A DNA stretch of 64,000 nt. It comes from Rhynchopus sp. YZ270_cl-10 (lineage: Eukaryota). Made by a program: the position numbers and the translations under genes. The stretch covers positions 1,054,001-1,118,000 of the forward strand of contig OZ037839.1 in NCBI GenBank assembly GCA_964035575.1, read 5' to 3'. Shown here one piece after another: positions 375-40,163 of this stretch (within the stretch, counting starts at the first letter, position 1; every line of letters starts with the position of its first letter). A model generated the notes under the pieces. It worked only from the letters and a program-made list of their open reading frames with translations, had not been told where the DNA came from and searched no databases.

Positions 375-1530
375 TTATGCTGCCCCCAACTCTCCAAATC
401 CTCTTTTTGTTCCTCTTTTTTGTCCTCTTGTGCTTGCATCAATCCCTTCTCTCTCTTGTCCTGCTTTCAATGCAATACATTGTCTTGCACTTCCAGACAC
501 GTCTGTTCGTACTGCCTCAAAAGCTTCTATCCGCACATCTTCGAACTGTTCCGTAATAAACCTTGCGTAAATCTCACGCATACGTTCACGTAAGGTCCGC
601 TTGTCGTAGAGGGGTGGGTCTCCATTCGGGAGAGACAACATCTCGTTAATGTCAATGTTGCCTGGCAAGACGACTGTTGTGAATGCGTTGCAGTTGTGCA
701 GGAAGTCGTCCTCGATCTCTGTGTCCCTGCCAAAACCTGACATGTCCAGCGTGGTCAAGGATGTGCAATCTTGCAGGAAACGTTTATCAATCCGACTAAC
801 ATTGCTCATTCCTGAGAAGTCTGCTGTTGTCAACGCGGAGCACTCTTGCAGCCAGCCGCGCTTAATGTGCATGATGCTGCGCAACACTGATAAATCAACT
901 GTTTGCAATGATGTGCAGTCAGAAAGAAACTCTGGCCCAATGGCTGCGACCCTGCCAAAAGCTGAAAGGTCGATACTACCCAGCGAGGTGCAGCTCCTCA
1001 GAAAGCCGCTACCTACCTTCGCAACTCTGTGCAGTGCTGGCAAGTCAATGGTTGCCAACGAGGTGCAGTTCTGGAGGAAGCCTCTCTCAATGTGTGTGAT
1101 TCTGCGCCATCCTGAGATGTCAATCCTTTCCAACGACTTGCAGTCGCAAACAAAAGCTGCACCAACCTTCGTCACACTCGTCATATGGGATAAGTCAAGC
1201 TCTGTGACGCCACTTCCTGCGAGGAACCTGTTCCCTATCACCGTCACAGTGAACCCTGACACGTCAAGGCTTGTCAACGATGTGCAGTAAGAGAGACAGC
1301 CATACCCGATGTGCGTAACGTTGCACAATCCCGACAAGTCAACAGTTTCCACCGACGTACACTCGGAGAGGAAGCCGTCCTTAATTCGTGTCACACCAGA
1401 CACAGCAGAGAGATCAAGTCTCGTAAACGATGCTCCCCACAGGAAGTAGTCCGGAATAACAGTCGCAACCTCCGCCTGAAGAAGCAGAGAAGCCACCTCA
1501 GGATCCTTCACAGTCGCCAACCTCGCTTCG
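375..1530 (-). pseudogene. Ubiquitin-like/LRR gene copy 1, 3' (LRR) half, separated from its 5' half (19892-20169) by retroelements A and B
   Basis: 24-aa BspA-like repeats (IxxxFLxxCTSLxxxDLS), collinear with intact paralogs 21233-22726 and 40546-42111; homology stops at 1530 after EARL. Confidence 0.9.
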
Positions 1531-1981
1531 ATAAACGTTTTTAAAAATAGGATGGAGCACCCCGGTCCGAAAAGGAATGCAGCCACCCCTGGCTTCAGGC
1601 TCGCGAACCCAGCGTTGATGTAACACAGGGTTTCACGGGCCAAAAACCAGAAAGAAAAATGAAAAATTGAGGGTTCAACGACTGCGCCAACTGGTCTCAT
1701 GCGACGTTGAACCAACTTAAAATCTAGAATCTTGTGTCAACTTGTAAAGAAAAGCAATGAATATTAAAAGTTACCGGTTTCAGGCGTGGTGTACACGTCT
1801 GCTGCCATCTACGCTGGGATAGCAGTCCGGCTTGAACTTGGGGTCCAACAACAGTGCCAAGTGGACTTATGCGTCGCTGTGTCAACTGAAAAACAATGAA
1901 AAACAAGAATGTCGTTGAGGAAGATTGAAATGCATGAAAAAAACAAATGCATGAAAAAAACAAGAAGAACAAGGTAAATCT

Positions 1982-2578
1982 CTACAGAGGGTGCTGTCCT
2001 AGCTTGTCCTCTTTCGTTGTCTCGCCCACACTAAGCTTCTCAACGGCCGTGCAGGCGAGCTTTGTGGCGTTCACGTTGTTACTGCTGTCGATGTGCACCA
2101 ACGTGATGCTTCGGGTCGCTCTCAGCTTGTCAAGCTCACCCCGCGCCTCTTTCTGGAGGTGGGCGACTGCCGCGTATGGTCTGCAGTGCTCGTTCACCTG
2201 GTCAACCACGGTTCTACTGGATCCGTAGATGTTCAGTGGTGGGGTGTCTGTGTCGCTCTTCAGGTATTCGAGGCACATCAGCAGTCCTTCATACTCCGCG
2301 ACGTTCAGGGGTGTGTCCGCCAGGCGACTACTGGCTGTCCACCGCACCTCGCCGTCTATCTCGAGGCGTGCTCCAGCGCCCGATCCCTGGCAAGTGTTTT
2401 TCTTCACCCTCGCCCCCGGCTGCCTCACGTTGCAGTATCCGCCGAAGAAGATGCGAGTGTGTCCGGTGGGTTTCTTAGGCTTGCGTCGATCCTGCTTCTG
2501 CTGCTTCTGCTCAGCAGCCAAACGGATGTGCTTCGCAATTCTGTTCGCTCTCTCCTGTTTGCAGTCCTCTTCTAGGCA
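1982..2578 (-). CDS. C-terminal RNase H-fold domain of the retroelement ORF, predicted catalytically inactive
   Basis: RNase HI-like pattern IFFGG..PG..GAGA..NVAEYEGL..LNIYGSS..VVDQV..HI...N..ATKLA; in frame with the RT ORF once MITE 2581-3408 and one TA are removed. Confidence 0.8.
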   Translation of the reverse strand, partial: CLEEDCKQERANRIAKHIRLAAEQKQQKQDRRKPKKPTGHTRIFFGGYCNVRQPGARVKKNTCQGSGAGARLEIDGEVRWTASSRLADTPLNVAEYEGLLMCLEYLKSDTDTPPLNIYGSSRTVVDQVNEHCRPYAAVAHLQKEARGELDKLRATRSITLVHIDSSNNVNATKLACTAVEKLSVGETTKEDKLGQHPL

Positions 2579-2580
2579 TA

Positions 2581-3408
2581 CTGTGCAGGCGAGCCGTTTT
2601 TAGGCGAGTTTTTCGTTTTCCTGATTTTCAGGAAAAACTCGCCAAAAACTCGCCCTACTCGCCCATTACTCGCCTATTACTCGCCAAAACTCGCCAAAAA
2701 CTCGCCAAAACTCGCCTAAACTCGCCTAAACTCGCCTAAACTCGCCAAAAACTCGCCTAAACTCGCCCCAATTTGGGTGCAAATCCTGGTGCACATACGC
2801 ACCTTGGGGGTGAAAATGTGCACCAGGATGTGAAAATGGAGGGCGGGGGTGACTGATGACAACATGCCACTCGAAAACACACAAAAAAATTGAAATTGTG
2901 TCACTTGTACGTCTAAAGGCAACCATGTCACGGCAGTGGCTGACAGGCATGTATGTAAACATTTGCTCCAGGGGAAGATCCAGGCGTGCCATAGATCCCG
3001 GGGGACAAGACGTGCTACAATCCGGAGGATGACGAAGACATGAGCCGGGGCTACACTCGCTATACAACAATGTCCTCGCCATGCCGGTAAATGGCAACCC
3101 TGCAGGCCACCCCCACGACTACATCGCACCCATCTGTGCAAGCTTCATGGATCCGCAGAAGCTACAGCTGGACTGGTGGTACTGGTTGTGGAAGCCTACA
3201 AAGCAAACTGTAGAGGTCTTGTTCAAGTGGAACGAAAAAAATTTTCTCTTCAAAACTCAAATTTCCCTCATATTTTCGTGTGTACACTTTTCCCAAGGTA
3301 AAATCCCTACCAAAAAAAAAAAACTCGCCAAAACTCGCCCCCCAAAAATAGGCGAGTTTTAGGCGAGTTTTTGGCGAGTAGGCGAGTTTTTTTTACTCGC
3401 CCGCACAG
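2581..3408. mobile_element. MITE with TA target duplication (Tc1/mariner-like signature) inserted in the RT ORF
   Basis: TIRs CTGTGCAGGCGAG / CTCGCCCGCACAG; TA at 2579-2580 and 3409-3410; subterminal AAACTCGCC repeats. Confidence 0.88.
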
Positions 3409-6400
3409 TATGTCTAGGGGTGGGAGCTCTGTGTTCGTCCAGGATTTGTTTCCGTTGCAGAGGGTTGGCAGGGACCGGATCGTCTTGAGCACCTCAGCTG
3501 GTTCGGTGAGGATGGGTCGTCTCGTGATCGCTAGGGTTCCCCACTTGATGCCTAGGTCTAATGGGGCGAACACTTTGCTCTTGGGGTAGATGGTGCCCGA
3601 GAAGAGGTACGCGTTTGCTGCCACTATCTTTGCCTTAGCCATCCAGTTGCTGAACCAGGTGATTTTGTCGGTGATCATGGAGCTCTCTCGGGAATTGGGT
3701 TCCTCTGTGGTGAGCTTTGCTCCTGTGTGCGCTTCGAAGTCCAGCGCCAGCTCCAGGTGCGAGACGTGCTGTGATTTCCCATTGGACACCGTCGGCCACT
3801 TTAGGCTTTCCAGCCACTCCTTGAGTGCGAGGTATCCTTCCGCTTTGTACGGCCACGCGTCTGGCACCTCGTCAGGAAGTACTCCTATGTAGGTCTCGTA
3901 TGGGCCTTCTGGTTCCCATGTCCAGGGAAAATTGTCCATTTGGCTCGTCTTCGTTGTAGTGGTACCGCGTTTTCTCTTGTCCTCCCTCTCTAGGGCGATG
4001 TCTGAGTACATGAGAAGCAGCAGCTCTAGGGCTTCTCTGTTCGGCACTTCCGGAATCATCTGGAAGCCGGCGGGGAGAATGGCGTTGAGGCGCAGGCATT
4101 TCGGCCAGCTTTCTCTTACTGCTGGATCGGACACTCCTGCGTATTTGTGCTGTTCGCGTATGTGTGCGGTGTGGCTGCATTGTTCCCACATGTGTTCAAA
4201 GTCCTCCACACCTGTGCCGCAGTGCTCGCACGTGTCACTGGTGCTCATCTTCATTCTTTTGCGCCTGTCCTGTGTGAGCTCCGCTCCTGCAAGAATGTTC
4301 CTCATGTACCCTGCACGCAGTGGATCTGTGTTCTTGTAGCTGTTCCACACGGCGTTGATCGTGCGATAATCGATGCCATCTTTAACCCCTTGCATGTCCT
4401 CCCTCCTTGTCTCGAGTCTACGGCAAAAATCGTCCCTGATACCGTCTCGGAGTTGGTGTCGAAGAAGGTCACCCTCGGGTTCGTCGAGGTTCATCTGTGT
4501 TGTGTGCGGGGGCAGTAGGGTGTTGTTCTCCCAGCGCCAGTTCATGGATTGGGTGGTGCGGAGGAGGATGTCTACCGGTCCACAGTATTTTACTCTCGAC
4601 GTCCGCTTCAGGATACGGATCTCGTCTATTAGGGTTCTAATCTCCTGGTTCTTCCCCATGGTGTAGAGCGCGAGCAGGCGTTGGTACTTGAGGTAGGATG
4701 TTGGGTCTGTCCGGTGTAGCGGGTTCAGCACTCCCCTCACTATTTCACTGCATCTGCTAGGTAGGCCCCTCCAAATTGCCGCCGTCACTGCTTTGGTGAG
4801 CCTTCCAGCGGTGGTGGACAGCGGCTCGTACGTCTCGCAGCCGTAGAGTGCCATGGGCATTATTTTTGTCGCCACCAGTTCGGCTCTGCCTTCAAAGGGG
4901 ACGTTGAGGTGAGGGATACGTCGCGCACATGTCTCAGCTTTGCGCACTCGCTTGTCCAGCTTTGTCGCTGCTTCCTTTTTCTTGGCTACGGCCAGTCTGA
5001 TCACTGCGCCGAGATTGTCCAGTTCCTTCTTCTCCTGTCTCAGCTGGGTGTCTCCGAGCATGAGCTCCAGCTTTTCGGTCTTGGCTGTCGAGAAGGAGAA
5101 ACTACTTCCGTACGTGAGGTCAGTCTTGGTGGCGAAGTCGTGGGACACTGTGAGGCCTTTCCTCAATTGTACGGTGTTGTTCGAGGTCATGGTGGTGTCG
5201 TCCGCGTACAGGCTTGTCCGACATCTGGTTTCCGTCCGAACCGCCGCCTCCCACACTGCTAGGAGGGCGTTCAGCAGGATAATGCTCAGCGCACATCCCT
5301 GCAGAATGCCATTGTTCGCTTTGAACTCCTCACCGACCGTACCGTATAGTTTGAACCGCCTCTTCAGGTCCCTGTACATGCTCTTGAGGGGCCGCGTGAT
5401 CTTCATGTCGATCCCCATTTTCTCCACAAGACTGAAGGTTATGTCCCACGGTATGGTGTCGAAGCATTTCTTAATGTCCAGAAATACTCCTCGCAGCGTG
5501 TTCCCCGACACCATTGCTTTTTCGACCAGGAGTGCGGTGAGGTAGAAAGCGTCACGTGTTCCGTGCCCAGTCCTGAAGCCGTGCATGGATTCCGGTGCCC
5601 ATGTCTCTTGCCACACCATCAGGCTCGTCAACCTTGTCTTTGCCCATAGCCGATATACCGCCGACATCACGGAAATTGGTCGGTGGTCGAGTGGTTGTGG
5701 GTTCTCCACCTTGGCGATCATGCTCACGGTCGCGTGGAGGAGAGCTTCTGGCCATACGCCCGTCTCTTCTACTTGGTTGAGGATTGATGCCAGCCTGTCG
5801 AAGATCCCCGTTGGGAGAAGCGCAAGTTCTTCTGGGTGCCATCCGTCTGTGCTGGGGGCCTTGCCCTTCGGCATGCTCTCGGCCACGGCTTTCAGCATCC
5901 TTCCGGTGAGGGGTTCTACGTGCATCGGCCGTTGAGGTATGTGTGTGCCAAACCTTTCCTCGAACGCTTCCCACGTGGGTGTGTCACTCAGGGTGTTGTG
6001 CTTTTGGAGTATGGGAAGCCATGCCTCACGCAACCACGTGTCCATGTCCTCCACATTCGCGGTCTCTTCCGTCCCGCGCTTCATCGTGTTGCACCGCACT
6101 TTGGCTCCGTTGAGGCGCTTGTAGATGAGCCCTGGTGTGGTGTGCCATTGCGTGCGTATCATGCGGTATCTTTGCGTGGCCCTGTCCCTCTCCAGGTTCT
6201 TTCTGGCAGTTTCGAGTCTCTGGTGCAGGCGCTGTATCAGCTCCAGTGTCGTGCTGGCCTGCGGCTCCTCCTCTGGGGTAGCGTCGAGAATGCTCACCAG
6301 CCCTGCCTTCGCTTTGTCCCACGCCTTGCGTGCGCTGGGTGTGAGGGCTCCTTTGGTGCGTAGAGTGTTGCCGACCTCAGTTAGTCTGCGGATCGTCTTC

Positions 6401-6702
6401 CGGATGCGCGTCATCTTGAGGGTCTCTCCTGCGTCGCCTTCGCGAGACTGTCTGCTGCACAGCCAGGTGCGTCGAAGTTTGGGTGGTCGGCCTTTGCGGA
6501 AACATGCTGCTGAGTTGTCGTCTCCCTGCCGTGCCCAGAAGTTGGTCGCATCCTCATTCCATGCTTTCCACTTGTCCTCTACCAATGTGCTTGCGTGCCA
6601 TTGTGCTTTGGAACCATCGCAGATCTCTTCAGCCTCCTTTTCCAGGTCTGCCTTCGTTTTCTTCCTGCTCAGGTCATCCTGTTGTAGCATAGGGGGCCTT
6701 TC
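3409..6702 (-). CDS. Non-LTR reverse transcriptase with CCHC zinc finger (5'-truncated ORF)
   Basis: Motifs KAPSTDG, HRPISV, FLDIKKCFDTI, GILQGCALS, LYADD; CEHCGTGVEDFEHMWEQC; no endonuclease domain seen in the retained part. Confidence 0.95.
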
Positions 6703-7302
6703 CAGTCGCCAACCTCGCTTCGGTAAACGTTTTTTAAAAATAGGATGGAGCACCCCGGTCCGAAAAGGAATGCAGCCACCCCTGGCTTCAGGCTCGCGAA
6801 CCCAGTATTGCAGTAACACTGGGTCTCACGGGCCAAAAACCGAACAAAGAAAAGGAAAATGTTTGGGTTCAGCGACAGCGCCAATGGGCTGACGCGAGGC
6901 TGAACCAACTTAAAATAAAATAACACTCAATCCCAAATTTTTGTCCAAACTGGGTATTTTTTAAAATAAAGAACAACTATTCAAAACCGTAAAATTCTTG
7001 CTTTAATTGATTTTTCTGGTAAAACCTATGAACACGCAAAAAAAATCGACCAGATTCGTTGAGTGACTAAAACCCAATCACCCATAGAGAGAGAGACCCA
7101 AAACGGTGATTTTCCCTGTAATTCCTTAAGGAATTGCCTTTGCCATTTGAAAAAATATTATGACCGCAAAAATGGCAACATGTAATCTGTGATGCTCAAA
7201 AGTGCAAAATTCTTGCTCCAATGGATTCTCCGGGTATATATTGTACCTGGAGAATATGCTCATATCACTCTTCAGACCATCTGGGGTATGGTCACACACA
7301 GG

Positions 7303-8078
7303 TAGTATACACAGTATACACAGTATACACAGTATACACAGTATACACAGTATACACAGTATACACAGTATACACAGTATACACAGTATACACAGTATAC
7401 ACAGTATACACAGTATACACAGTATACACAGTATACACAGTATACACAGTATACACAGTATACACAGTATACACAGTATACACAGTATACACAGTATACA
7501 CAGTATACACAGTATACACAGTATACACAGTATACACAGTATACACAGTATACACAGTATACACAGTATACACAGTATACACAGTATACACAGTATACAC
7601 AGTATACACAGTATACACAGTATACACAGTATACACAGTATACACAGTATACACAGTATACACAGTATACACAGTATACACAGTATACACAGTATACACA
7701 GTATACACAGTATACACAGTATACACAGTATACACAGTATACACAGTATACACAGTATACACAGTATACACAGTATACACAGTATACACAGTATACACAG
7801 TATACACAGTATACACAGTATACACAGTATACACAGTATACACAGTATACACAGTATACACAGTATACACAGTATACACAGTATACACAGTATACACAGT
7901 ATACACAGTATACACAGTATACACAGTATACACAGTATACACAGTATACACAGTATACACAGTATACACAGTATACACAGTATACACAGTATACACAGTA
8001 TACACAGTATACACAGTATACACAGTATACACAGTATACACAGTATACACAGTATACACAGTATACACAGTATACACA
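7303..8078. repeat. (AGTATACAC)n 9-bp tandem repeat
   Basis: Pure tandem array read directly. Confidence 0.98.
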
Positions 8079-8101
8079 GGGGATTGGGAGTACAGTATAC
8101 T

Positions 8102-8887
8102 GTACAGTACAGTACAGTACAGTACAGTACAGTACAGTACAGTACAGTACAGTACAGTACAGTACAGTACAGTACAGTACAGTACAGTACAGTACAGTAC
8201 AGTACAGTACAGTACAGTACAGTACAGTACAGTACAGTACAGTACAGTACAGTACAGTACAGTACAGTACAGTACAGTACAGTACAGTACAGTACAGTAC
8301 AGTACAGTACAGTACAGTACAGTACAGTACAGTACAGTACAGTACAGTACAGTACAGTACAGTACAGTACAGTACAGTACAGTACAGTACAGTACAGTAC
8401 AGTACAGTACAGTACAGTACAGTACAGTACAGTACAGTACAGTACAGTACAGTACAGTACAGTACAGTACAGTACAGTACAGTACAGTACAGTACAGTAC
8501 AGTACAGTACAGTACAGTACAGTACAGTACAGTACAGTACAGTACAGTACAGTACAGTACAGTACAGTACAGTACAGTACAGTACAGTACAGTACAGTAC
8601 AGTACAGTACAGTACAGTACAGTACAGTACAGTACAGTACAGTACAGTACAGTACAGTACAGTACAGTACAGTACAGTACAGTACAGTACAGTACAGTAC
8701 AGTACAGTACAGTACAGTACAGTACAGTACAGTACAGTACAGTACAGTACAGTACAGTACAGTACAGTACAGTACAGTACAGTACAGTACAGTACAGTAC
8801 AGTACAGTACAGTACAGTACAGTACAGTACAGTACAGTACAGTACAGTACAGTACAGTACAGTACAGTACAGTACAGTACAGTACAG
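8102..8887. repeat. (AGTAC)n microsatellite
   Basis: Pure tandem array read directly. Confidence 0.98.
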
Positions 8888-9692
8888 TGCGATTCACATA
8901 TCAGACAAGATCTCGTTAGGCGTATACTTCTGGGCCTCGTTCACTTCATAAACCACAGATGCAATTTTTTGAGCCTACGACCCCACATTTAACTCATTTC
9001 GATCCGCTGATTTCAATCCCAAAAAATATTTCAAAAAAATATTTCTGGTGTGGCACCTTAACCGATTCTCCGTGGTTCTACCCGTTGTCCCTCCGTAAAG
9101 GGGGGGTATGGATGTTGGAAAACAGGCCTTCATATGCACCTTCGGTACAACGTCGCAGGCAGGCCAAACAGCGTTTTGAATTTGTTGTTTGTGAGCTACC
9201 CGCATGTGGAAGGCCCACTTCTCAGAATTCACGACATTTTTTCTCGACCCGATTGGTGGAGTACATATTTGTTATCACCCCCTGGTTACCCTACTGACAC
9301 ATTTTCAAAAGAATCGGCGTTAAAGAAAATCAGAATGCTCGATGTTCACGCGTGGGATAGTTTTTCACGAGTATAAAGTACGGTGTGAACAGCTCATGTA
9401 TTGGTGCACTCTCTCTGATCTCTTTGACCGGACATATGTGCAACACATGCACTCCTCCTCGCGTGTGCAGTTGATGAAGCTGTTGCAAGCGTCTTATCCA
9501 TTGCAGTCTCAAGAGAAATACGTCTGACAGCAGACGAGTTCGGGGCCGGACATCCACTCAAATGCAGGACATGTCTCTAATGTCCTAATCCTGTGCACCA
9601 AGCACCACCCCAGGCGCTTCGCGGCAAAGGGCAGGCTTAGCCCAGCCCTTAGCCGCGAAGCGACTGGGGGGTCTGGGGGGCGGAGCCCCCCA

Positions 9693-12600
9693 GCGAAATT
9701 TTTTGACTTAACACTGCTTGTGCTTAGAAAACCCGAATTTTTTACCCTTCAAAATTGCATTTGAGGAACTCACAACGCGTCAAAACGAAAAGGTCGTTTT
9801 TGGCACTTTTAAAACCGGGCTCCGCTGAGTTCACCATATTTTTGCTCGATTTATTTAGTGGAGTAACTAATTAGTAATCGTATTCTCGGACAAAAATTCG
9901 GGACGAGGTGTTAGATAATTCCCCTGTATTTTACTAAGGGAAAATCCCTAGTAAAATACAGGCAAAAATCCAGGTAAAAATCACTTTGTCTCGATTTTTT
10001 AGTAAAAATACAGGGTGCAACGAAACCAGAAAAAAACTTCGCCATTGGACGTTTCTGGGTTCCGAGCTTTTAACGCAAAAAAAATCTATTTTTTTTTCGC
10101 GAAATTTTTTGACTTAACACTGCTTGTGCTTAGAAAACCCGAATTTTTTACCCTTCAAAATTGCATTTGAGGAACTCACAACGCGTCAAAACGAAAAGGT
10201 CGTTTTTGGCACTTTTAAAACCGGGCTCCGCTGAGTTCACCATATTTTTGCTCGATTTATTTAGTGGAGTAACTAATTAGTAATCGTATTCTCGGACAAA
10301 AATTCGGGACGAGGTGTTAGATAATTCCCCTGTATTTTACTAAGGGAAAATCCCTAGTAAAATACAGGCAAAAATCCAGGTAAAAATCACTTTGTCTCGA
10401 TTTTTTAGTAAAAATACAGGGTGCAACGAAACCAGAAAAAAACTTCGCCATTGGACGTTTCTGGGTTCCGAGCTTTTAACGCAAAAAAAATCTATTTTTT
10501 TTTCGCGAAATTTTTTGACTTAACACTGCTTGTGCTTAGAAAACCCGAATTTTTTACCCTTCAAAATTGCATTTGAGGAACTCACAACGCGTCAAAACGA
10601 AAAGGTCGTTTTTGGCACTTTTAAAACCGGGCTCCGCTGAGTTCACCATATTTTTGCTCGATTTATTTAGTGGAGTAACTAATTAGTAATCGTATTCTCG
10701 GACAAAAATTCGGGACGAGGTGTTAGATAATTCCCCTGTATTTTACTAAGGGAAAATCCCTAGTAAAATACAGGCAAAAATCCAGGTAAAAATCACTTTG
10801 TCTCGATTTTTTAGTAAAAATACAGGGTGCAACGAAACCAGAAAAAAACTTCGCCATTGGACGTTTCTGGGTTCCGAGCTTTTAACGCAAAAAAAATCTA
10901 TTTTTTTTTCGCGAAATTTTTTGACTTAACACTGCTTGTGCTTAGAAAACCCGAATTTTTTACCCTTCAAAATTGCATTTGAGGAACTCACAACGCGTCA
11001 AAACGAAAAGGTCGTTTTTGGCACTTTTAAAACCGGGCTCCGCTGAGTTCACCATATTTTTGCTCGATTTATTTAGTGGAGTAACTAATTAGTAATCGTA
11101 TTCTCGGACAAAAATTCGGGACGAGGTGTTAGATAATTCCCCTGTATTTTACTAAGGGAAAATCCCTAGTAAAATACAGGCAAAAATCCAGGTAAAAATC
11201 ACTTTGTCTCGATTTTTTAGTAAAAATACAGGGTGCAACGAAACCAGAAAAAAACTTCGCCATTGGACGTTTCTGGGTTCCGAGCTTTTAACGCAAAAAA
11301 AATCTATTTTTTTTTCGCGAAATTTTTTGACTTAACACTGCTTGTGCTTAGAAAACCCGAATTTTTTACCCTTCAAAATTGCATTTGAGGAACTCACAAC
11401 GCGTCAAAACGAAAAGGTCGTTTTTGGCACTTTTAAAACCGGGCTCCGCTGAGTTCACCATATTTTTGCTCGATTTATTTAGTGGAGTAACTAATTAGTA
11501 ATCGTATTCTCGGACAAAAATTCGGGACGAGGTGTTAGATAATTCCCCTGTATTTTACTAAGGGAAAATCCCTAGTAAAATACAGGCAAAAATCCAGGTA
11601 AAAATCACTTTGTCTCGATTTTTTAGTAAAAATACAGGGTGCAACGAAACCAGAAAAAAACTTCGCCATTGGACGTTTCTGGGTTCCGAGCTTTTAACGC
11701 AAAAAAAATCTATTTTTTTTTCGCGAAATTTTTTGACTTAACACTGCTTGTGCTTAGAAAACCCGAATTTTTTACCCTTCAAAATTGCATTTGAGGAACT
11801 CACAACGCGTCAAAACGAAAAGGTCGTTTTTGGCACTTTTAAAACCGGGCTCCGCTGAGTTCACCATATTTTTGCTCGATTTATTTAGTGGAGTAACTAA
11901 TTAGTAATCGTATTCTCGGACAAAAATTCGGGACGAGGTGTTAGATAATTCCCCTGTATTTTACTAAGGGAAAATCCCTAGTAAAATACAGGCAAAAATC
12001 CAGGTAAAAATCACTTTGTCTCGATTTTTTAGTAAAAATACAGGGTGCAACGAAACCAGAAAAAAACTTCGCCATTGGACGTTTCTGGGTTCCGAGCTTT
12101 TAACGCAAAAAAAATCTATTTTTTTTTCGCGAAATTTTTTGACTTAACACTGCTTGTGCTTAGAAAACCCGAATTTTTTACCCTTCAAAATTGCATTTGA
12201 GGAACTCACAACGCGTCAAAACGAAAAGGTCGTTTTTGGCACTTTTAAAACCGGGCTCCGCTGAGTTCACCATATTTTTGCTCGATTTATTTAGTGGAGT
12301 AACTAATTAGTAATCGTATTCTCGGACAAAAATTCGGGACGAGGTGTTAGATAATTCCCCTGTATTTTACTAAGGGAAAATCCCTAGTAAAATACAGGCA
12401 AAAATCCAGGTAAAAATCACTTTGTCTCGATTTTTTAGTAAAAATACAGGGTGCAACGAAACCAGAAAAAAACTTCGCCATTGGACGTTTCTGGGTTCCG
12501 AGCTTTTAACGCAAAAAAAATCTATTTTTTTTTCGCGAAATTTTTTGACTTAACACTGCTTGTGCTTAGAAAACCCGAATTTTTTACCCTTCAAAATTGC

Positions 12601-15600
12601 ATTTGAGGAACTCACAACGCGTCAAAACGAAAAGGTCGTTTTTGGCACTTTTAAAACCGGGCTCCGCTGAGTTCACCATATTTTTGCTCGATTTATTTAG
12701 TGGAGTAACTAATTAGTAATCGTATTCTCGGACAAAAATTCGGGACGAGGTGTTAGATAATTCCCCTGTATTTTACTAAGGGAAAATCCCTAGTAAAATA
12801 CAGGCAAAAATCCAGGTAAAAATCACTTTGTCTCGATTTTTTAGTAAAAATACAGGGTGCAACGAAACCAGAAAAAAACTTCGCCATTGGACGTTTCTGG
12901 GTTCCGAGCTTTTAACGCAAAAAAAATCTATTTTTTTTTCGCGAAATTTTTTGACTTAACACTGCTTGTGCTTAGAAAACCCGAATTTTTTACCCTTCAA
13001 AATTGCATTTGAGGAACTCACAACGCGTCAAAACGAAAAGGTCGTTTTTGGCACTTTTAAAACCGGGCTCCGCTGAGTTCACCATATTTTTGCTCGATTT
13101 ATTTAGTGGAGTAACTAATTAGTAATCGTATTCTCGGACAAAAATTCGGGACGAGGTGTTAGATAATTCCCCTGTATTTTACTAAGGGAAAATCCCTAGT
13201 AAAATACAGGCAAAAATCCAGGTAAAAATCACTTTGTCTCGATTTTTTAGTAAAAATACAGGGTGCAACGAAACCAGAAAAAAACTTCGCCATTGGACGT
13301 TTCTGGGTTCCGAGCTTTTAACGCAAAAAAAATCTATTTTTTTTTCGCGAAATTTTTTGACTTAACACTGCTTGTGCTTAGAAAACCCGAATTTTTTACC
13401 CTTCAAAATTGCATTTGAGGAACTCACAACGCGTCAAAACGAAAAGGTCGTTTTTGGCACTTTTAAAACCGGGCTCCGCTGAGTTCACCATATTTTTGCT
13501 CGATTTATTTAGTGGAGTAACTAATTAGTAATCGTATTCTCGGACAAAAATTCGGGACGAGGTGTTAGATAATTCCCCTGTATTTTACTAAGGGAAAATC
13601 CCTAGTAAAATACAGGCAAAAATCCAGGTAAAAATCACTTTGTCTCGATTTTTTAGTAAAAATACAGGGTGCAACGAAACCAGAAAAAAACTTCGCCATT
13701 GGACGTTTCTGGGTTCCGAGCTTTTAACGCAAAAAAAATCTATTTTTTTTTCGCGAAATTTTTTGACTTAACACTGCTTGTGCTTAGAAAACCCGAATTT
13801 TTTACCCTTCAAAATTGCATTTGAGGAACTCACAACGCGTCAAAACGAAAAGGTCGTTTTTGGCACTTTTAAAACCGGGCTCCGCTGAGTTCACCATATT
13901 TTTGCTCGATTTATTTAGTGGAGTAACTAATTAGTAATCGTATTCTCGGACAAAAATTCGGGACGAGGTGTTAGATAATTCCCCTGTATTTTACTAAGGG
14001 AAAATCCCTAGTAAAATACAGGCAAAAATCCAGGTAAAAATCACTTTGTCTCGATTTTTTAGTAAAAATACAGGGTGCAACGAAACCAGAAAAAAACTTC
14101 GCCATTGGACGTTTCTGGGTTCCGAGCTTTTAACGCAAAAAAAATCTATTTTTTTTTCGCGAAATTTTTTGACTTAACACTGCTTGTGCTTAGAAAACCC
14201 GAATTTTTTACCCTTCAAAATTGCATTTGAGGAACTCACAACGCGTCAAAACGAAAAGGTCGTTTTTGGCACTTTTAAAACCGGGCTCCGCTGAGTTCAC
14301 CATATTTTTGCTCGATTTATTTAGTGGAGTAACTAATTAGTAATCGTATTCTCGGACAAAAATTCGGGACGAGGTGTTAGATAATTCCCCTGTATTTTAC
14401 TAAGGGAAAATCCCTAGTAAAATACAGGCAAAAATCCAGGTAAAAATCACTTTGTCTCGATTTTTTAGTAAAAATACAGGGTGCAACGAAACCAGAAAAA
14501 AACTTCGCCATTGGACGTTTCTGGGTTCCGAGCTTTTAACGCAAAAAAAATCTATTTTTTTTTCGCGAAATTTTTTGACTTAACACTGCTTGTGCTTAGA
14601 AAACCCGAATTTTTTACCCTTCAAAATTGCATTTGAGGAACTCACAACGCGTCAAAACGAAAAGGTCGTTTTTGGCACTTTTAAAACCGGGCTCCGCTGA
14701 GTTCACCATATTTTTGCTCGATTTATTTAGTGGAGTAACTAATTAGTAATCGTATTCTCGGACAAAAATTCGGGACGAGGTGTTAGATAATTCCCCTGTA
14801 TTTTACTAAGGGAAAATCCCTAGTAAAATACAGGCAAAAATCCAGGTAAAAATCACTTTGTCTCGATTTTTTAGTAAAAATACAGGGTGCAACGAAACCA
14901 GAAAAAAACTTCGCCATTGGACGTTTCTGGGTTCCGAGCTTTTAACGCAAAAAAAATCTATTTTTTTTTCGCGAAATTTTTTGACTTAACACTGCTTGTG
15001 CTTAGAAAACCCGAATTTTTTACCCTTCAAAATTGCATTTGAGGAACTCACAACGCGTCAAAACGAAAAGGTCGTTTTTGGCACTTTTAAAACCGGGCTC
15101 CGCTGAGTTCACCATATTTTTGCTCGATTTATTTAGTGGAGTAACTAATTAGTAATCGTATTCTCGGACAAAAATTCGGGACGAGGTGTTAGATAATTCC
15201 CCTGTATTTTACTAAGGGAAAATCCCTAGTAAAATACAGGCAAAAATCCAGGTAAAAATCACTTTGTCTCGATTTTTTAGTAAAAATACAGGGTGCAACG
15301 AAACCAGAAAAAAACTTCGCCATTGGACGTTTCTGGGTTCCGAGCTTTTAACGCAAAAAAAATCTATTTTTTTTTCGCGAAATTTTTTGACTTAACACTG
15401 CTTGTGCTTAGAAAACCCGAATTTTTTACCCTTCAAAATTGCATTTGAGGAACTCACAACGCGTCAAAACGAAAAGGTCGTTTTTGGCACTTTTAAAACC
15501 GGGCTCCGCTGAGTTCACCATATTTTTGCTCGATTTATTTAGTGGAGTAACTAATTAGTAATCGTATTCTCGGACAAAAATTCGGGACGAGGTGTTAGAT

Positions 15601-17218: not shown

Positions 17219-17384
17219 TAAAAGATCTTGTATCAACTTGAAAAGGAAAAGCAATGAACAGCAACAGAGCCATTTGGGCTTACGCGTCGCTATAGTAACT
17301 GAAAAACAATGTTTTAAAAACAAGAATGTCGTTGACCAAGATTGAAATACACGAAAAAGGTAAAATACTAAGAATTGCCTCATA

Positions 17385-19800: not shown

Positions 19801-19822
19801 GTTGTTCTTCTTTTTCTTCTTG

Positions 19823-19890
19823 TTCCGAGTCTTTGCCGCAGTCCACTGCGTTGCCCGGGGTCACCTCGTGGAGGTGCTCGGTAAAACCCC
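19823..19890 (-). ncRNA. Predicted HDV-like self-cleaving ribozyme at the 5' end of element B
   Basis: GGGGUU-UUA-CCGAGC-ACC-UCCACGA-GGU-GACCCC-GG-GCAA-CGCAG-UGGA-CUGCG-GCAAA-GACUCGG fits P1/P2/P3/L3/P1.1/P4/J4-2; predicted cleavage site 1 nt from the TSD. Confidence 0.8.
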
Positions 19891-19891
19891 T

Positions 19892-20169
19892 GTCGCCAAC
19901 CTCGCTTCGGAAATGTCTGTCTCACCCAAGGCACGAAGTGCCTCAACAGATGCGTACTTAGTAGTTTTCGTCAACACGACTGTGTCTCCAGCACTCAGTT
20001 CTGTGATGTCCTCTCCTTCCTCCTTCCCTCCGAAGCCCATGCGGAAGCTGTCTTCGCCCAACCCTGTTGCAGACGCCACCTTCTGCCGCATCGTCTCCGT
20101 TGTGTCGTTCTCACCCACCTCAATCACGTATTTGGTGTCATCATCATATCCCTGCACACACAGTTCCAT
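19892..20169 (-). pseudogene. Ubiquitin-like/LRR gene copy 1, 5' (ubiquitin-like) half
   Basis: MELCVQGY...IEVGENDTTETMRQKVASATGL...FRMGFGGK...GDTVVL...EARLAT, as in intact paralogs. Confidence 0.9.
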
Positions 20170-26226: not shown

Positions 26227-27294
26227 TTATGCTGCCCCCAACTCTCCAAATCCTCTTTTTGTTCCTCTTTTTTGTCCTCTTGTGCTTGCATCAATCCCTT
26301 CTCTCTCTTGTCCTGCTTTCAATGCAATACATTGTCTTGCACTTCCAGACACGTCTGTTTGTACTGCCTCAAAAGCTTCTATCCGCACACCTCTGAACTG
26401 TTCCGCAAACCTTGCGTAAATCTCACGCACACGTACATAGAAGGCCTCCTTGTAGGTGCTCATTCTTGGGTCTCCATTCGGGAGAGACAACATCTCGTCA
26501 ATGTCGATGTTGCCTGGCAAGACGACTGTTGTGAGTGCGTTGCAGTTGATCAGGAAGTTGCGCTGCTGGATCTCTGTGTCCCTGCCAAAACCTGACATGT
26601 CCAGCGTGGTCAAGGATGTGCAATCTTGCAGGAAACAACTATCAATCAGCGTAACATTGCTCATTCCTGAGAAGTTTGCTGTTGTCAACGCGGAACACCC
26701 TTGCAGCCAGTTTTGCTCAATGTGTATGATGCTGCGCAACACTGATAAATCAACTGTTTTCAATGATGTGCACTTCCTAAGAAACTCTGACTCAATAAAT
26801 GCGACATTGCCAAAAGCTGAGAGGTCGATACTCTCCAGCGAGGTGCAGCTCTCAAGAAAGCCGTACTTTACCTTCACAACCCTGTGCAGTGCTGTCAAGT
26901 CAATCGTTTTCAACGAGGTGCAGGACGAACAAAACTGGTTCCCAATTTTCGTCACACTCGTCATCTCGGATAAGTCAAGATTTGTGACGCCACTTTGTGC
27001 GAGGAACGAGCTCCCTATCACCGTCACACCAGTGAACCCTGACACGTCAAGGCAGAGAGACAGCCATCCCCGATGTGCGTAACGTTGCACAATCCCGACA
27101 AGTCAACGGTTTCCACTGACCCACACCCGCGGAGGAAGTAGCGCTCAATTCGTGTCACACCAGACACAGCAGAGAGATCAAGTCTCGTAAACGATGCTTG
27201 CGCCAAGAAGTAGTCCGGAATAACAGTCGCAACCTCCGCCTGAAGAAGCAGAGAAGCCACCTCAGGATCCTTCACAGTCGCCAACCTCGCTTCG
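26227..27294 (-). pseudogene. Ubiquitin-like/LRR gene copy 4, 3' half (split by element C; frameshifting deletion near 27053)
   Basis: LRR homology spread over two frames (ORFs 26227-27090 and 27024-27284); about 19 nt missing relative to paralogs. Confidence 0.88.
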
Positions 27295-27654
27295 GTAAAC
27301 GTTTTTTAAAAATAGGATGGAGCACCCCGGTCCGAAAAGGAATGCAGCCACCCCTGGCTTCAGGCTCGCGAACCCAGTATTGCAGTAACACTGGGTCTCA
27401 CGGGCCAAAAACCGAACAAAGAAAAGTAAAATGTTTGGGTTCAGCGACAGCGCCAATGGGCTGACGCGAGGCTGAACCAACTTAAAATAAAATAAAAAAA
27501 TCTTGTATCAACTTGAAAAGGAAAAGCAATGAACAGCAACAGAGCCATTTGGGCTTACGCGTCGCTATAGTAACTGAAAAACAATGTTCTAAAAACAAGA
27601 ATGTCGTTGACCAAGATTGAAATACACGAAAAAGGTAAAATACTAAGAATTGCC

Positions 27655-30345
27655 TCATATTCCATGGGCATCGTTTCTGATGTTGTAGTTTGTCTGCTGA
27701 GTGATCACGCGCCCCCCCTACTAGGGAGGTCTTAGGTTCATGCTTCGGCTAGCACGTAAAAGCTACCATGTCGTCGAAGTTAGCGGTCCTCGTATTCCAT
27801 GAGGTCTTTCAGATGTTGTTGTTTGTCTGCTGAGTGATCACGCGCCCCCCCTACTAGGGAGGTCTTAGGTTCAGGCTTCGGCTTGCACGTAAAAGCTACC
27901 ATGTCGTCGAAGTTAGCGGTCCTCGTATTCCATGAGGTCTTTCAGATGTTGTTGTTTGTCTGCTGAGTGATCACGCGCCCCCCCTACTAGGGAGGTCTTA
28001 GGTTCAGGCTTCGGCTAGCACGTAAAAGCTACCATGTCGTCGAAGTTAGCGGTCCTCGTATTCCATGAGGCATTTCTGATGATGTAGTTTGTCTGCTGAG
28101 TGATCACGCGCCCCCCCTACTAGGGAGGTCTTAGGTTCATGCTTCGGCTTGCACGTAAAAGCTACCATGTCGTCGAAGTTAGCGGTCCTCGTATTCCATG
28201 AGGTCTTTCAGATGTTGTTGTTTGACTGCTGAGTGATCACGCGCCCCCCCTACTAGGGAGGTCTTAGGTTCAGGCTTCGGCTTGCACGTAAAGAACTACC
28301 ATGTAGTCGAAGTTAGCGGTCCTCGTATTCCATGAGGCATTTCTGATGATGTAGTTTGTCTGCTGAGTGATCACGCGCCCCCCCTACTAGGGAGGTCTTA
28401 GGTTCATGCTTCGGCTTGCACGTAAAGAACTACCATGTCGCCGAAGTTAGCGGTCCTCGTATTCCATGAGGTCTTTCAGATGTTGTTGTTTGTCTGCTGA
28501 GTGATCACGCGCCCCCCCTACTAGGGAGGTCTTAGGTTCGGGCTTCGGCTTGCACGTAAAAGCTACCATGTCGTCGAAGTTAGCGGTCCTCGTATTCCAT
28601 GAGGCATTTCTGATGATGTAGTTTGTCTGCTGAGTGATCACGCGCCCCCCCTACTAGGGAGGTCTTAGGTTCATGCTTCGGCTTGCACGTAAAGAACTAC
28701 CATGTCGCCGAAGTTAGCGGTCCTCGTATTCCATGAGGCATTTCTGATGATGTAGTTTGTCTGCTGAGTGATCACGCGCCCCCCCTACTAGGGAGGTCTT
28801 AGGTTCGGGCTTCGGCTTGCACGTAAAAGCTACCATGTCGTCGAAGTTAGCGGTCCTCGTATTCCATGAGGCATTTCTGATGATGTAGTTTGTCTGCTGA
28901 GTGATCACGCGCCCCCCCTACTAGGGAGGTCTTAGGTTCATGCTTCGGCTTGCACGTAAAGAACTACCATGTCGCCGAAGTTAGCGGTCCTCGTATTCCA
29001 TGAGGTCTTTCAGATGTTGTTGTTTGACTGCTGAGTGATCACGCGCCCCCCCTACTAGGGAGGTCTTAGGTTCGGGCTTCGGCTTGCACGTAAAAGCTAC
29101 CATGTCGCCGAAGTTAGCGGTCCTCGTATTCCATGAGGTCTTTCAGATGTTGTTGTTTGACTGCTGAGTGATCACGCGCCCCCCCTACTAGGGAGGTCTT
29201 AGGTTCATGCTTCGGCTAGCACGTAAAAGCTACCATGTCGTCGAAGTTAGCGGTCCTCGTATTCCATGAGGTCTTTCAGATGTTGTTGTTTGTCTGCTGA
29301 GTGATCACGCGCCCCCCCTACTAGGGAGGTCTTAGGTTCATGCTTCGGCTTGCACGTAAAAGCTACCATGTCGCCGAAGTTAGCGGTCCTCGTATTCCAT
29401 GAGGCATTTCTGATGATGTAGTTTGTCTGCTGAGTGATCACGCGCCCCCCCTACTAGGGAGGTCTTAGGTTCATGCTTCGGCTTGCACGTAAAAGCTACC
29501 ATGTCGTCGAAGCTAGCGGTCCTCGTATTCCATGAGGCATTTCTGATGATGTAGTTTGTCTGCTGAGTGATCACGCGCCCCCCCTACTAGGGAGGTCTTA
29601 GGTTCATGCTTCGGCTTGCACGTAAAAGCTACCATGTCGCCGAAGTTAGCGGTCCTCGTATTCCATGAGGCATTTCTGATGATGTAGTTTGTCTGCTGAG
29701 TGATCACGCGCCCCCCCTACTAGGGAGGTCTTAGGTTCATGCTTCGGCTTGCACGTAAAAGCTACCATGTCGCCGAAGTTAGCGGTCCTCGTATTCCATG
29801 AGGCATTTCTGATGATGTAGTTTGTCTGCTGAGTGATCACGCGCCCCCCCTACTAGGGAGGTCTTAGGTTCGGGCTTCGGCTTGCACGTAAAAGCTACCA
29901 TGTCGTCGAAGTTAGCGGTCCTCGTATTCCATGAGGTCTTTCAGATGTTGTTGTTTGACTGCTGAGTGATCACGCGCCCCCCCTACTAGGGAGGTCTTAG
30001 GTTCATGCTTCGGCTTGCACGTAAAAGCTACCATGTCGTCGAAGTTAGCGGTCCTCGTATTCCATGAGGCATTTCTGATGATGTAGTTTGTCTGCTGAGT
30101 GATCACGCGCCCCCCCTACTAGGGAGGTCTTAGGTTCATGCTTCGGCTTGCACGTAAAAGCTACCATGTCGTCGAAGTTAGCGGTCCTCGTATTCCATGA
30201 GGTCTTTCAGATGTTGTTGTTTGACTGCTGAGTGATCACGCGCCCCCCCTACTAGGGAGGTCTTGGGTTCAGGCTTCGGCTAGCACGTAAAAAGCTACCA
30301 TGTCGCGAAGTTAGCGGTCCTCGTATTCCATGAGGCACTTCAGAT
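27655..30345. repeat. About 133-bp tandem repeat (about 20 units) in retroelement C
   Basis: Same unit as 17385-19800 with a different order of variants. Confidence 0.96.
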
Positions 30346-30367
30346 GTTGTTCTTCTTTTTCTTCTTG

Positions 30368-30435
30368 TTCCGAGTCTTTGCCGCAGTCCACTGCGTTGCC
30401 CGGGGTCACCTCGTGGAGGTGCTCGGTAAAACCCC
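30368..30435 (-). ncRNA. Predicted HDV-like ribozyme at the 5' end of element C
   Basis: Same sequence as 19823-19890; abuts the TSD with one extra G. Confidence 0.8.
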
Positions 30436-30436
30436 C

Positions 30437-30714
30437 GTCGCCAACCTCGCTTCGGAAATGTCTGTCTCACCCAAGGCACGAAGTTCCTCAACAGATTGGT
30501 ACTTGGTAGTTTTCGCCAACACGACTGTGTCTCCAGCACTCAGTTCTGTGATGTCCTCTCCTTCCTCCTTCCCTCCGAAGCCCATGCGGAAGCTGTCTTC
30601 GCACAACCCTGTTGCAGACGCCACCTTCTGCCGCATCGTCTCCGTTGTGTCGTTCTCACCCACCTCAATCACGAATTTGTTTTCATCATCATATCCCTGC
30701 ACACACAGTTCCAT
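30437..30714 (-). pseudogene. Ubiquitin-like/LRR gene copy 4, 5' half
   Basis: MELCVQGY...EARLAT, then element C. Confidence 0.9.
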
Positions 30715-37395: not shown

Positions 37396-38035
37396 AATGC
37401 TCTGTTGGAAGGGTGAGGTGGGGAGGCGGGTAGGGTGGGTGAGTGGGGATATGTGGAAGTACTGGGGCAGAATATATTCGTTGACTTGTGAATCAATGAT
37501 GTGCACCCCAGAAGAAACTCTGACCCCATGACTGCGACATTGCCAAAGCTGTCAGGTCAATAGTTTCCAACGAGGTTGCTGTGGGTGTTTGGTGGGAGGC
37601 GGGTAACGTGGGTGGAGTGGGTAAGGAGGGAGGTGGAGGTCTAAGATAGATTGAGATTACCTAAAAGACCCGAGAGGGGTGAATAGTACTGAAAAATAAC
37701 AAACAGAGAGGAGGGAAGGGGATACTTTGTATCTCGAAAAGAGTCGCTACGATGAAGGGGGCGAAACAACGCAAAACAAAAACACAACAAAACATCTGAT
37801 AAAGATGAAGCAAAACCACACAAAACAGCTCCCCACACCACAGCTTCAATATTCTTCCCATCACACGACGGGAAAGAGTAAATAACGTTTTCCCCAAGTG
37901 TTCACAGGTGTATCCAAAAATGCAGTTCAATAGGTTCACCAAAGTGTTCTTCAAATCCTCCTGTTTGTCCTTCCCCAAACCCGTCAAATCCTCCTGCTTG
38001 TCGCACCCGTTTGTGCTGGTCTTTTTGTGCTTGCA

Positions 38036-39281
38036 TCAAAACCCTTCTCTCTCTTGTCCTGCTTTCAATGCAATACATTGTCTTGCACTTCCAGACACGT
38101 CTGTTCGTACTGCCTCAAAAGCTTCTATCCGCACATCCCCGAACTGTTCCGTAAACCTTGCGTAAATGTCACGCACACGTACATAGAAGGCCTCCTTGTA
38201 GGTGCTCATTCTAGGGTCTCCATTCGGGAGAGACAACATCTCGTCAATGCCGATGTTGCCTGGCAAGACGACTGTTGTGAGTGCGTTGCAGTTGAGCAGG
38301 AAGTCGTCCTGGATCCCTGTGTCCCTGCCAAAACCTGACATGTCCAGCGTCGTCAAGGATGTGCAATCTCGCAGGAAACCACGATCAATCTGCGTAACAT
38401 TGCTCAGTCCTGAGAAGTCTGCTGTTGTCAACGCGGAGCACCCTTGCAACCAGTCGCGCTTAATGTGTGTGATAGTGAGCAACTTTGATAAATCAACTGT
38501 TTTCAATGATGAGCACTGAAAAATAAATTTGTGCCCGATGTCTGCGACATTGCCAAAAGCTGAAAGGTCGATACTTCCCAGCGAGGTGCAGCTCGTAAGA
38601 AATTCGTCGCCCACCTTCACAACTCTGTGCAGTGCTGTCAAATCAATCGTTTCCAACGAGGTGCAGCCCGAACAAAAGTCGCTACGAAGTTCCGTCACAT
38701 TCGTCATCCCTGAAAAGCTGATGGTGGTCAACGACTTGCAGTTGGAGAGAAAGTTGGATCCGATCTTCGTGACACTGCAAAAAGCTGACAAATCAATGGT
38801 TGCCAACGAGGTGCAGTTCCAGAGGAAGCCGTCCTCAATGTGTGTGATTCTGCGCCATCCTGAGATGTCAATCCTTTCCAACGACTCGCAGTAGGCAAGA
38901 AAGTATGCACCAACCTTCGTCACACTCGTCATATGGGATAAGTCAAGATTTGTGACGCCAGTTCCTGCGAGGAACGAGCTCCCTATCACCGTCACACCAG
39001 TGAACCCTGACACGTCAAGGCTTGTCAACGATTTGCAGCTATGGAGACAGTTATGCCCAATGTACGTAACGTTGCACAATCCCGACAAGTCAACGGTTTC
39101 CAGCGACTCACACGCGGAGAGGAATCCGATCTCAATTCGTGTCACACCAGACACAGCAGAGAGATCAAGTCTCGTAAACGATGCTCCCCACAAGAACCCA
39201 TCCGGAATAACAGTCGCAACCTCCGCCTGAAGAAGCAGAGAAGCCACCTCAGGATCCTTCACAGTCGCCAACCTCGCTTCG
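38036..39281 (-). pseudogene. Ubiquitin-like/LRR gene copy 5, 3' half (frame still open; split by element D)
   Basis: Collinear with paralogs up to the target site at 39281. Confidence 0.88.
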
Positions 39282-39884
39282 TAAACGTTTTTAAAAATAG
39301 GATGGAACACCCCGTTCCGAAGAGGAATGCAGCCACCCCGAAAAAGTGGGGGGTGTGTCGCCAGTCTGCGGTGAGAAACTCCTCCCTGAGTCAAAACTGC
39401 CGCTGGTTAGCGCTGGCTAAGGTTCCCTTTTCACCCGGTCACAATCGAGTCTCGCTCCGTCGGCGTTGACTGCACTGCAAAGCCCCTTGGTCCACCGTCG
39501 TAAAAGACACCACAAAAAGCGTAGGTAGGTGGGGGACCGGCAGGTTACAGACAGAGGCAGTACGGAGCTAAGGTGTCGGCGGTCGCGGGTTACCGTGGAG
39601 GCCTGCCCCCCGTGGAGGTCTTGGGATCTGGGAGTTTTGTGGAAGTAATCGGCTCAGAGTACCCTGCATTCCATGCACGACTCGAGCTCCTTGTGGTAGG
39701 ATATTGGGGTCCAGGGAAGCACCCTTCGCCCCGAGGTCCCACCACCCCAGACAGTTTGTAGGTCTAAAAGCACAACGTACTTGTCCAGGACCTGGCCGCT
39801 CTTGGGTTCTCTCGAAAAAAAGATACTAATCCCGTACGCCCGTGCACCGCAAAAATGTGCTATGGGGGGCGGTCCGCCGTCGGG
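39282..39884 (-). mobile_element. Short SINE-like or truncated element D at the same target site
   Basis: 19-bp TSD AGTC(G/A)CCAACCTCGCTTCG at 39263-39281 and 39885-39903; visibly shares only the terminal about 60 nt with A-C. Confidence 0.88.
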
Positions 39885-40163
39885 AGTCACCAACCTCGCT
39901 TCGGAAATGTCTGTCTCACCCAAGGCACGAAGTGTTTCAACAGATGCGTACTTAGTAGTTTTCGTCAACACGACTGTGTCTCCAGCACTCAGTTCTGTGA
40001 TGTCCTCTCCTTCCTCCTTCCCTCCGAAGCCCATGCGGAAGCTGTCTTCGCACAACCCTGTTGCAGACGCCACCTTCTCCCGCATCGTCTCCGTTGTGTC
40101 GTTCTCACCCACCTCAATCACGTATTTGGTATCATCATCATATCCCTGCACACACAGTTGCAT
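39885..40163 (-). pseudogene. Ubiquitin-like/LRR gene copy 5, 5' half
   Basis: MQLCVQGY...EARLVT, then element D. Confidence 0.9.

Follow-up and report, generated by a model that had tools for sequence, protein, structure and literature searches.

Why should four mobile elements lie at one and the same position in neighbouring protein-coding genes? This question is raised by a 64,000-nucleotide stretch of the eukaryote Rhynchopus sp. YZ270_cl-10 (contig OZ037839.1, positions 1,054,001 to 1,118,000), here called the window. It contains eight intronless genes, all on the minus strand, encoding an N-terminal ubiquitin-like (Ubl) domain and BspA-type leucine-rich repeats (LRR). Their Pfam matches are weak for ubiquitin (E 2e-5 to 2e-3) and strong for LRR_5. 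Six of these paralogs are close (Ubl parts 95-98% identical) and two are diverged; three of the close ones are interrupted, and neither of the diverged ones. Sequence comparison makes it quite probable that a family of retrotransposons without long terminal repeats (non-LTR), with an apurinic/apyrimidinic-type endonuclease (APE), occupies a single Ubl-LRR codon together with two short passenger classes, the endonuclease likely reading the DNA there.

The sequence CTCGCTTCG is found ten times in the window, four times followed by the shared element end and six times by GAAATG. The latter six cases are three 5' junctions and three intact genes (22469, 25633, and 41854). Three close paralogs are split at one bond, TTCG^GAAATG (+ strand), by four insertions (A to D), which all lie on the minus strand in the orientation of the host gene. 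The target duplications are 20 bp for A, 18 bp for B, 18 bp for C, and 19 bp for D, the last with one mismatch. The 5' junctions of B and C have one extra non-target base each, and the 3' junction of the four insertions varies by 1 nt. All four end in the same tail of about 58 nt, which consists of a hairpin and CGTTTA without poly(A). The fold z-scores are -2.06 (A) and -1.98 (D), with identical stems in both. Junction comparison therefore confirmed what had been claimed in the original prediction, made from the letters alone: four co-oriented insertions at one position in three paralogs, a 3' junction constant within 1 nt with 18-20 bp duplications, and an empty site in the intact paralogs. 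The mismatch in the D duplication is an A/G allele difference among the paralogs. Its two copies (39263-39281 and 39885-39903) carry different paralog alleles, which suggests recombination between filled paralogs. The upstream flank of the target (19913-19919 and paralogs, minus strand) also contains CAGACAT, which is part of the nine-base L1Tc site in RHS genes as given in the accessible text of PMC6967402. This overlap is probably due to chance; the longer L1Tc consensus misfits by eye.

Element A is a coding copy without open reading frame (ORF) 1, OTU domain, or APE. It was ruled out as a working master, being 5'-truncated at residue 461 of 1753 and split by an 838-bp element (2576-3413) that is missing from other copies. 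That element has terminal inverted repeats and 10-bp subterminal repeats, and its contig cover is far deeper than that of the reverse transcriptase (RT) region. The full-length copy and its endonuclease, whose recovery had been proposed, were found by protein search: P0002 has 1753 aa and is 99% identical to A over the region searched. It contains OTU, APE endonuclease, RT, zf-RVT/CCHC, and degenerate RNase H domains (RVT_1, E 5e-22; Exo_endo_phos, 27.9 bits against a cut-off of 24.5). The APE motifs lie at 204-445, a YADD-type RT motif at 960, and the OTU Cys/His motif was located. Three of the four acidic residues of the RNase H are lost in the A family and kept in P0004 and P0011, as judged by eye. 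The coding-family cluster has 19 members, with at least four full-length frames among the 15 listed. The APE upstream of a YADD-type RT places P0002 among the APE-type non-LTR elements, and target duplication, a fixed 3' end, variable 5' truncation, and the lack of long terminal repeats are all as in non-LTR elements. The R2/CRE group was ruled out, with the APE N-terminal to the RT and an RNase H-like C-terminus. The best solved-structure matches of the RT are human L1 ORF2p (52 bits) and then R2 (42 bits), and no named ingi or L1Tc protein was among the matches listed.

An upstream ORF1 is present in P0052, P0056, and P0059. It encodes a 74-aa ubiquitin-like domain ending in LRGG (Pfam E 2e-9), with no Met before this domain. 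Long helices are predicted after it at low confidence (single-sequence model, pLDDT 47.7), and an atlas search with ORF1 gave no usable match. The named relatives of P0002 are Diplonema papillatum proteins with 34-38% identity, which points to a probably diplonemid host. A quick RT tree was built from 45 of 54 rows, nine being dropped for too little matched RT core, and it held no named clade references.

The insertions B and C share the 5' end of the coding family. Their ribozyme sequence, read as a peptide, opens ORF1 in P0056 and P0059. Since this sequence is common to the master's ORF1 start and to B and C, these two elements consist of a ribozyme, a 133-bp array, and a 3' untranslated region (UTR). 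The 3' UTR of about 340 nt is 82-85% like that of A. The B ribozyme scores 37.7 bits against RF02682, which is below the gathering threshold of 44, with a local E-value of 5e-6. The predicted fold has 22 of 22 expected pairs, including P1 (6 bp), P1.1, P2, P3, and P4, and forms the nested double pseudoknot with catalytic C of ribozymes like that of hepatitis delta virus (HDV). G1 of the ribozyme coincides with the 5' junction in B and C, one base after the duplication. The HDV descriptor used is loose, and also matches in a 406-bp array and in host genes. The 133-bp unit has no Rfam match and a folding z of about 0. The unique parts of C and B are identical at 200/201, 180/183, and 131/131 positions, and their hosts share 191/197 upstream bases. 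A descent of B and C from one insertion is possible, but D's host and an empty paralog are just as alike (192/199 upstream bases), and B-type starts were found in four other paralog records. The 10.3-kb insert of B, a later nested insertion, is absent from C. It has ends that we take to be CACTA-like, and carries microsatellites with 9-bp and 5-bp units as well as 18.5 identical copies of a 406-bp unit. Element D is a SINE-like (short interspersed element) passenger. Its 5' end gave no Rfam match, no HDV descriptor match, and no tRNA. The proposed coding master with two classes of non-coding passengers thus holds for the family and for both classes, and fails for A itself; the reading of B and C as passengers stands, although their ribozyme start and B's nested 10.3 kb had been missed.

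Junctions beyond the window were surveyed in protein records whose frames run from the host Ubl into an element. Short frames and representatives at 50% or 90% are over-represented among these records, which lie on many different contigs, presumably of one assembly. In 28 of the 29 records where an element start can be recognised, the junction falls exactly after the codon R-L-x-x; this bears out the claim that the elements were directed by sequence, time and again, into a protein-coding Ubl-LRR family. The 28 records comprise 18 full-length and 2 truncated D elements, 5 B-type starts, and 2 full-length and 1 truncated master copies; two of them represent B and, judging by sequence, D of the window itself. 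The 28 junctions have 17 distinct flanks, agreeing at as few as 3/9 residues, and 21 flank-by-start pairs. An identical empty paralog exists among the records for 8 of the 17 flanks. These are therefore independent insertions rather than copies of one, far more than the three events expected at the least. Various 5' truncation points occur at the one codon (P0055, P0145, P0146, and A). P0055 and P0050 contain the same truncated copy, only one of the two having another element on its 5' side, as B lies 5' of A. In P0154, one codon is missing between LGE and DI and the junction is kept, so that the register seems to be set close to the cut. R-L is present in 28/28 filled and 45/53 empty sites (Fisher p 0.03, from non-independent records).

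The same genes apparently have a neighbouring site that is used by a second APE-RT family. Of the 134 records of the Ubl family, 78 continue intact beyond residue 112, 26 are broken at the first site, and 30 are broken elsewhere. Eight of these 30 break at one residue 22 codons upstream (LTKxxK), for which the probability is about 3e-6 if breaks were uniform. This second site corresponds to about window position 22515 in an intact paralog, and is seen in records such as P0243, P0331, P0344, and P0208. In three records, the host part runs on there into 5'-truncated copies of another family (P0337/P0350; 1666 and 1664 aa, about 30% like A), whose N-terminal peptide ends in DVEENPGP, presumably a 2A-like sequence. 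A fourth junction of this family (P0330) has an unrelated flank, leaving three of four visible junctions at the second site. P0208 joins there to an OTU-bearing ORF. No duplication is visible at this site in protein records. The Ubl domain ends at this position as well, and 16 short Ubl-family records breaking nearby have no in-frame match to 11 element proteins. An intron or deletion could explain some of these breaks. A related family, that of P0004 (40% identity), comes from another record set and has 11 of 14 members on a single contig, which hints that an array is targeted in another genome. One member, P0068, is fused in frame to a host gene with DUF4116 repeats.

The strictness of the targeting has to be weighed against several observations. 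In a survey of four runs, with contigs aligned on the B 3' junction, at least 12, 11, 14, and 8 of the rows listed were contigs that match only over the 52-63-nt tail, with unlike sequence on both sides. Their flank agreement of 0.51-0.56 (0.68 in one group of three) is close to that of random flanks of the same group sizes (0.44-0.56), compared with 0.9 among the window's paralogs. Most of the tail depth halts inside the T-run short of the junction, so that the flanks of the abundant young copies are hidden; contig depths were not read as copy numbers. In P0289, the Ubl part is joined to D some 40 codons earlier. The 28 junctions were recognised by their host sequence, and so do not give the share of copies on target. 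All of these points weigh against an exclusive use of the Ubl-LRR site, and the strict site specificity originally proposed is not supported. The elements might have only relative specificity, like ingi/L1Tc, with a loose consensus cut genome-wide and the Ubl-LRR genes being the commonest perfect match that holds a minority of copies. The dispersed tails in all four runs and the large hidden depth favour this possibility, and about half of the L1Tc copies are reported with RHS genes in the part of PMC6967402 that was accessible. We consider it unlikely nonetheless. All four coding-family frames that cross the 5' junction (15 listed among 19 members) have a Ubl-LRR flank, although such records are more readily obtained where the host frame is open. 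Among the listed pieces, the dispersed tails have 3-8 differences in about 55-62 letters, and thus look older. The exact tail pattern had no match in metagenome contigs; metagenome relatives (best 80 of 95 loci) are distant and short with uninformative flanks, and Rfam found no ribozyme in 10 loci. As far as the sequences go, the Ubl-LRR codon is likely a strong hot spot rather than an exclusive site.

Two other explanations would not require the endonuclease to choose the site. One or a few old insertions might have been spread by duplication and gene conversion in the array. The paralogs are indeed mosaic, with upstream regions shared pairwise, the copies of the D duplication differ by an allele base, and P0050 and P0055 share one truncated copy. 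However, the 17 flanks abut the junction directly, eight of them are identical to empty paralogs, and three element classes with several truncation points lie at one site; this explanation is largely refuted and scarcely credible. Alternatively, the site might be picked mainly by tethering of ORF1 or OTU to a protein or RNA at the genes, or by pairing of read-through RNA. Within the duplication, the flanks are highly variable, the tail end ACGTTTA resembles ACATTTC just upstream of the cut (5/7 alike), and the second unrelated family in the same genes hints at a common attraction. Reading of the DNA is nevertheless indicated by a register kept to the codon from paralog to paralog and by the R-L bias, and the two families use two different sites, which makes such a choice very improbable. 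Site choice by the endonuclease at the DNA is thus preferred here.

The steps of such an insertion can be modelled on established target-primed reverse transcription. The elements would be co-transcribed with the host genes, and the HDV-like ribozyme would trim the 5' end by cleaving at G1. The RT protein may bind the 3' stem-loop of the tail, and passengers with that tail would then be carried along. Reverse transcription would be primed by a nick in the antisense strand at TTCG^GAAATG, and the sense strand would then be nicked at a distance of about 19 nt. Recognition probably rests on a short stretch coding for D/N-I/L-x-x-x-R-L, with change tolerated in between. Such tolerance would make most paralog subfamilies usable and would allow some off-target insertion. 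The redundancy of the gene family may make the gene losses tolerable.

A further and more speculative idea, which is doubtful at present, is that the Ubl-LRR family forms a habitat like ribosomal DNA (rDNA), split between at least two unrelated APE lineages with their own codon-exact sites. The first lineage would borrow the host start codon to make a fusion of host Ubl, ribozyme peptide, and ORF1, from which LRGG and OTU would free ORF1. Both full-length master junctions seen (P0056 and P0059) are in frame with the host start. With these junctions on a codon boundary and the ribozyme frame continuous with ORF1, the host-ORF1 fusions are in frame. The element's OTU might cut after LRGG, so that the end of ORF1 would be fixed irrespective of where translation starts. 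On the other hand, a fixed junction is in frame in one third of cases by chance, gene calling favours such records, and ribozyme cleavage would part the host start from ORF1.

The nearest known systems are ingi/RIME of Trypanosoma brucei and L1Tc/NARTc of T. cruzi, which also combine a euglenozoan host, an APE-RT element, and a short non-coding passenger. In the accessible text of the sources, ingi/RIME and L1Tc use one hot spot in the 5' coding part of trypanosome RHS genes (PMC7563717, PMC6967402, PMC5814959), which is said to disrupt over half of the RHS members (PMC7563717, PMC6967402, PMC5814959, PMC12278014). As in the Ubl-LRR genes, there is one site, two gene halves, and sometimes several elements. 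L1Tc is also described with a 5' HDV-like ribozyme, here predicted, and with relative rather than absolute specificity (PMC7563717, PMC6967402, PMC5814959, PMC12278014). A Pr77 hallmark with a ribozyme at the 5' end marks the ingi clade, and of this the HDV-like fold is what is seen here. TcTREZO, a site-specific repeat, is tied to another protein-coding multigene family, the MASP genes of T. cruzi; it is a composite non-coding element for which no such master is described in the parts consulted (PMC5814959, PMC6967402). The claim that a protein-coding multigene niche is unprecedented is not supported, since RHS with ingi/RIME and L1Tc, and MASP with TcTREZO, precede it (PMC7563717, PMC6967402, PMC5814959). 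The present family differs from ingi/L1Tc in its two ORFs (Ubl-headed ORF1; OTU-APE-RT-CCHC-degenerate RNase H), in its 3' hairpin instead of the poly(A) tail of the ingi clade (PMC12278014), and in its 18-20 bp duplication. The host is Ubl-LRR rather than RHS, and the junction is held across paralogs with very different flanks. The ingi-type APE-RT-RNase H domains are present, but the RNase H is without three of four acidic residues, and OTU and ORF1 are added. Given the absent poly(A) and the different layout, the element is not filed as Ingi.

There is also a likeness to R2/R1 and the SIDE passengers in 28S rDNA, in the co-orientation with a multicopy host and in two families at two nearby sites. 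The passenger consists of ribozyme and 3' end as in R2 SIDEs, where the 5' ribozyme frees the element from the co-transcript (PMC3414825, from the accessible text). The target here is protein-coding and variable, and the endonuclease is APE, compared with the restriction-like endonuclease of R2 (PMC4640811). R1 and the Tx1 clade share APE-type sequence-specific insertion with a fixed-length duplication. The targets of specific elements listed in the consulted part of PMC4640811 are rRNA, spliced leader, and tRNA/snRNA genes, transposons, microsatellites, and telomeres, with none protein-coding. RT polyproteins of D. papillatum (such as KAJ9440002.1, automatic label 'R2DM') have the same OTU-APE-RT-RNase H order, 36% identity, and the same RT group in the quick tree, although their RNase H retains the acidic residues. 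A host fusion is recognisable in 0 of 14 listed D. papillatum family members, and the genome paper reports LINE (long interspersed element), SLACS, R2, and jockey-like ORFs, with no targets given in its accessible portion (PMC10161547). OTU domains are known from Helentrons (PMC4067079, accessible text). No description of the element family or of its target, and none of Ubl or OTU domains in an element of this kind, was found in a full-text literature search, which left most subscription papers and Repbase outside. What is new here is the element architecture, a precision that is kept from one diverged paralog to the next, the use of two sites within a single coding family, and the in-frame host-ORF1 fusions.

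Features of the window, with the basis of each assignment
Feature	Position	Strand	Basis
LRR half of host gene 1, downstream of A	375..1530	-	Pfam LRR_5 E 1e-24
A target duplication, 3' copy, 20 bp (5' copy 6703-6722)	1511..1530	-	junction comparison
Shared 3' tail (A): predicted stem-loop, then T5/A5-6 and CGTTTA	1531..1590	-	fold and junctions
Element A, 5'-truncated coding copy: RT, CCHC, degenerate RNase H, 3' UTR	1531..6702	-	starts at P0002 residue 461
Inverted-repeat element inside A's ORF, CTAG duplication	2576..3413		terminal repeats; 842-bp gap in contigs of 4 runs
Element B, non-coding, with ribozyme, 133-bp array, and 3' UTR; tandem neighbour of A on its upstream side; 18-bp duplication	6723..19891	-	repeats, junctions
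Nested insertion in B, 10.3 kb, CAC...GTG ends, TAA duplication	6924..17218		absent from C
133-bp tandem array of B, 18 units	17404..19806	-	repeat analysis
HDV-like ribozyme (predicted), exact 5' end of B	19823..19890	-	RF02682 37.7 bits
Ubl half of host gene 1, up to conserved upstream motif	19910..20169	-	Pfam, paralog comparison
Intact Ubl-LRR paralog, empty site 22469/22470	21233..22726	-	Pfam, junction comparison
Intact Ubl-LRR paralog, empty site 25633/25634	24388..25893	-	Pfam, junction comparison
LRR half of C's host, with internal deletion	26227..27294	-	Pfam, paralog comparison
Element C, B-type passenger without nested insertion	27295..30436	-	identity to B
133-bp tandem array of C, 20 units	27653..30350	-	repeat analysis
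HDV-like ribozyme (predicted), exact 5' end of C	30368..30435	-	position at 5' junction
Ubl half of C's host	30455..30714	-	Pfam, paralog comparison
LRR half of D's host	38036..39281	-	Pfam
Element D, 603-bp SINE-like passenger, only ~58-nt tail in common	39282..39884	-	fixed 5' end
Ubl half of D's host	39904..40163	-	Pfam, paralog comparison
Intact Ubl-LRR paralog, empty site 41854/41855	40546..42111	-	Pfam, junction comparison
Diverged paralog, empty site, motif 47420-47439	46672..47673	-	Pfam, motif comparison
Diverged paralog, empty site, motif 48992-49011	48319..49245	-	Pfam, motif comparison

Other features of the window lie beside these genes. A 416-bp duplicate (99.8%) is found at 23473-23888 and 37184-37598, and contains an 84-bp fragment of an LRR gene. 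The long minus-strand frames 32368-37551 (1727 aa) and 43062-45086 (674 aa) have no Pfam match. The region 55400-58866 is element-like, with 97-bp inverted repeats flanking 6- and 7-bp microsatellite arrays and a 590-bp duplication.

To our knowledge, RNA genes and repeats are the usual targets of the target-specific APE retrotransposons described so far. The codon-exact aim across paralogs that differ at most flank residues provides a natural mutagenesis series for DNA reading by an APE, and a candidate integrase with a new specificity. The ubiquitin-like and OTU domains would have a testable role in a LINE. These findings suggest that the elements shape how LRR gene arrays turn over, and that what is seen in the RHS genes of trypanosomes might be one case of a wider euglenozoan habit.

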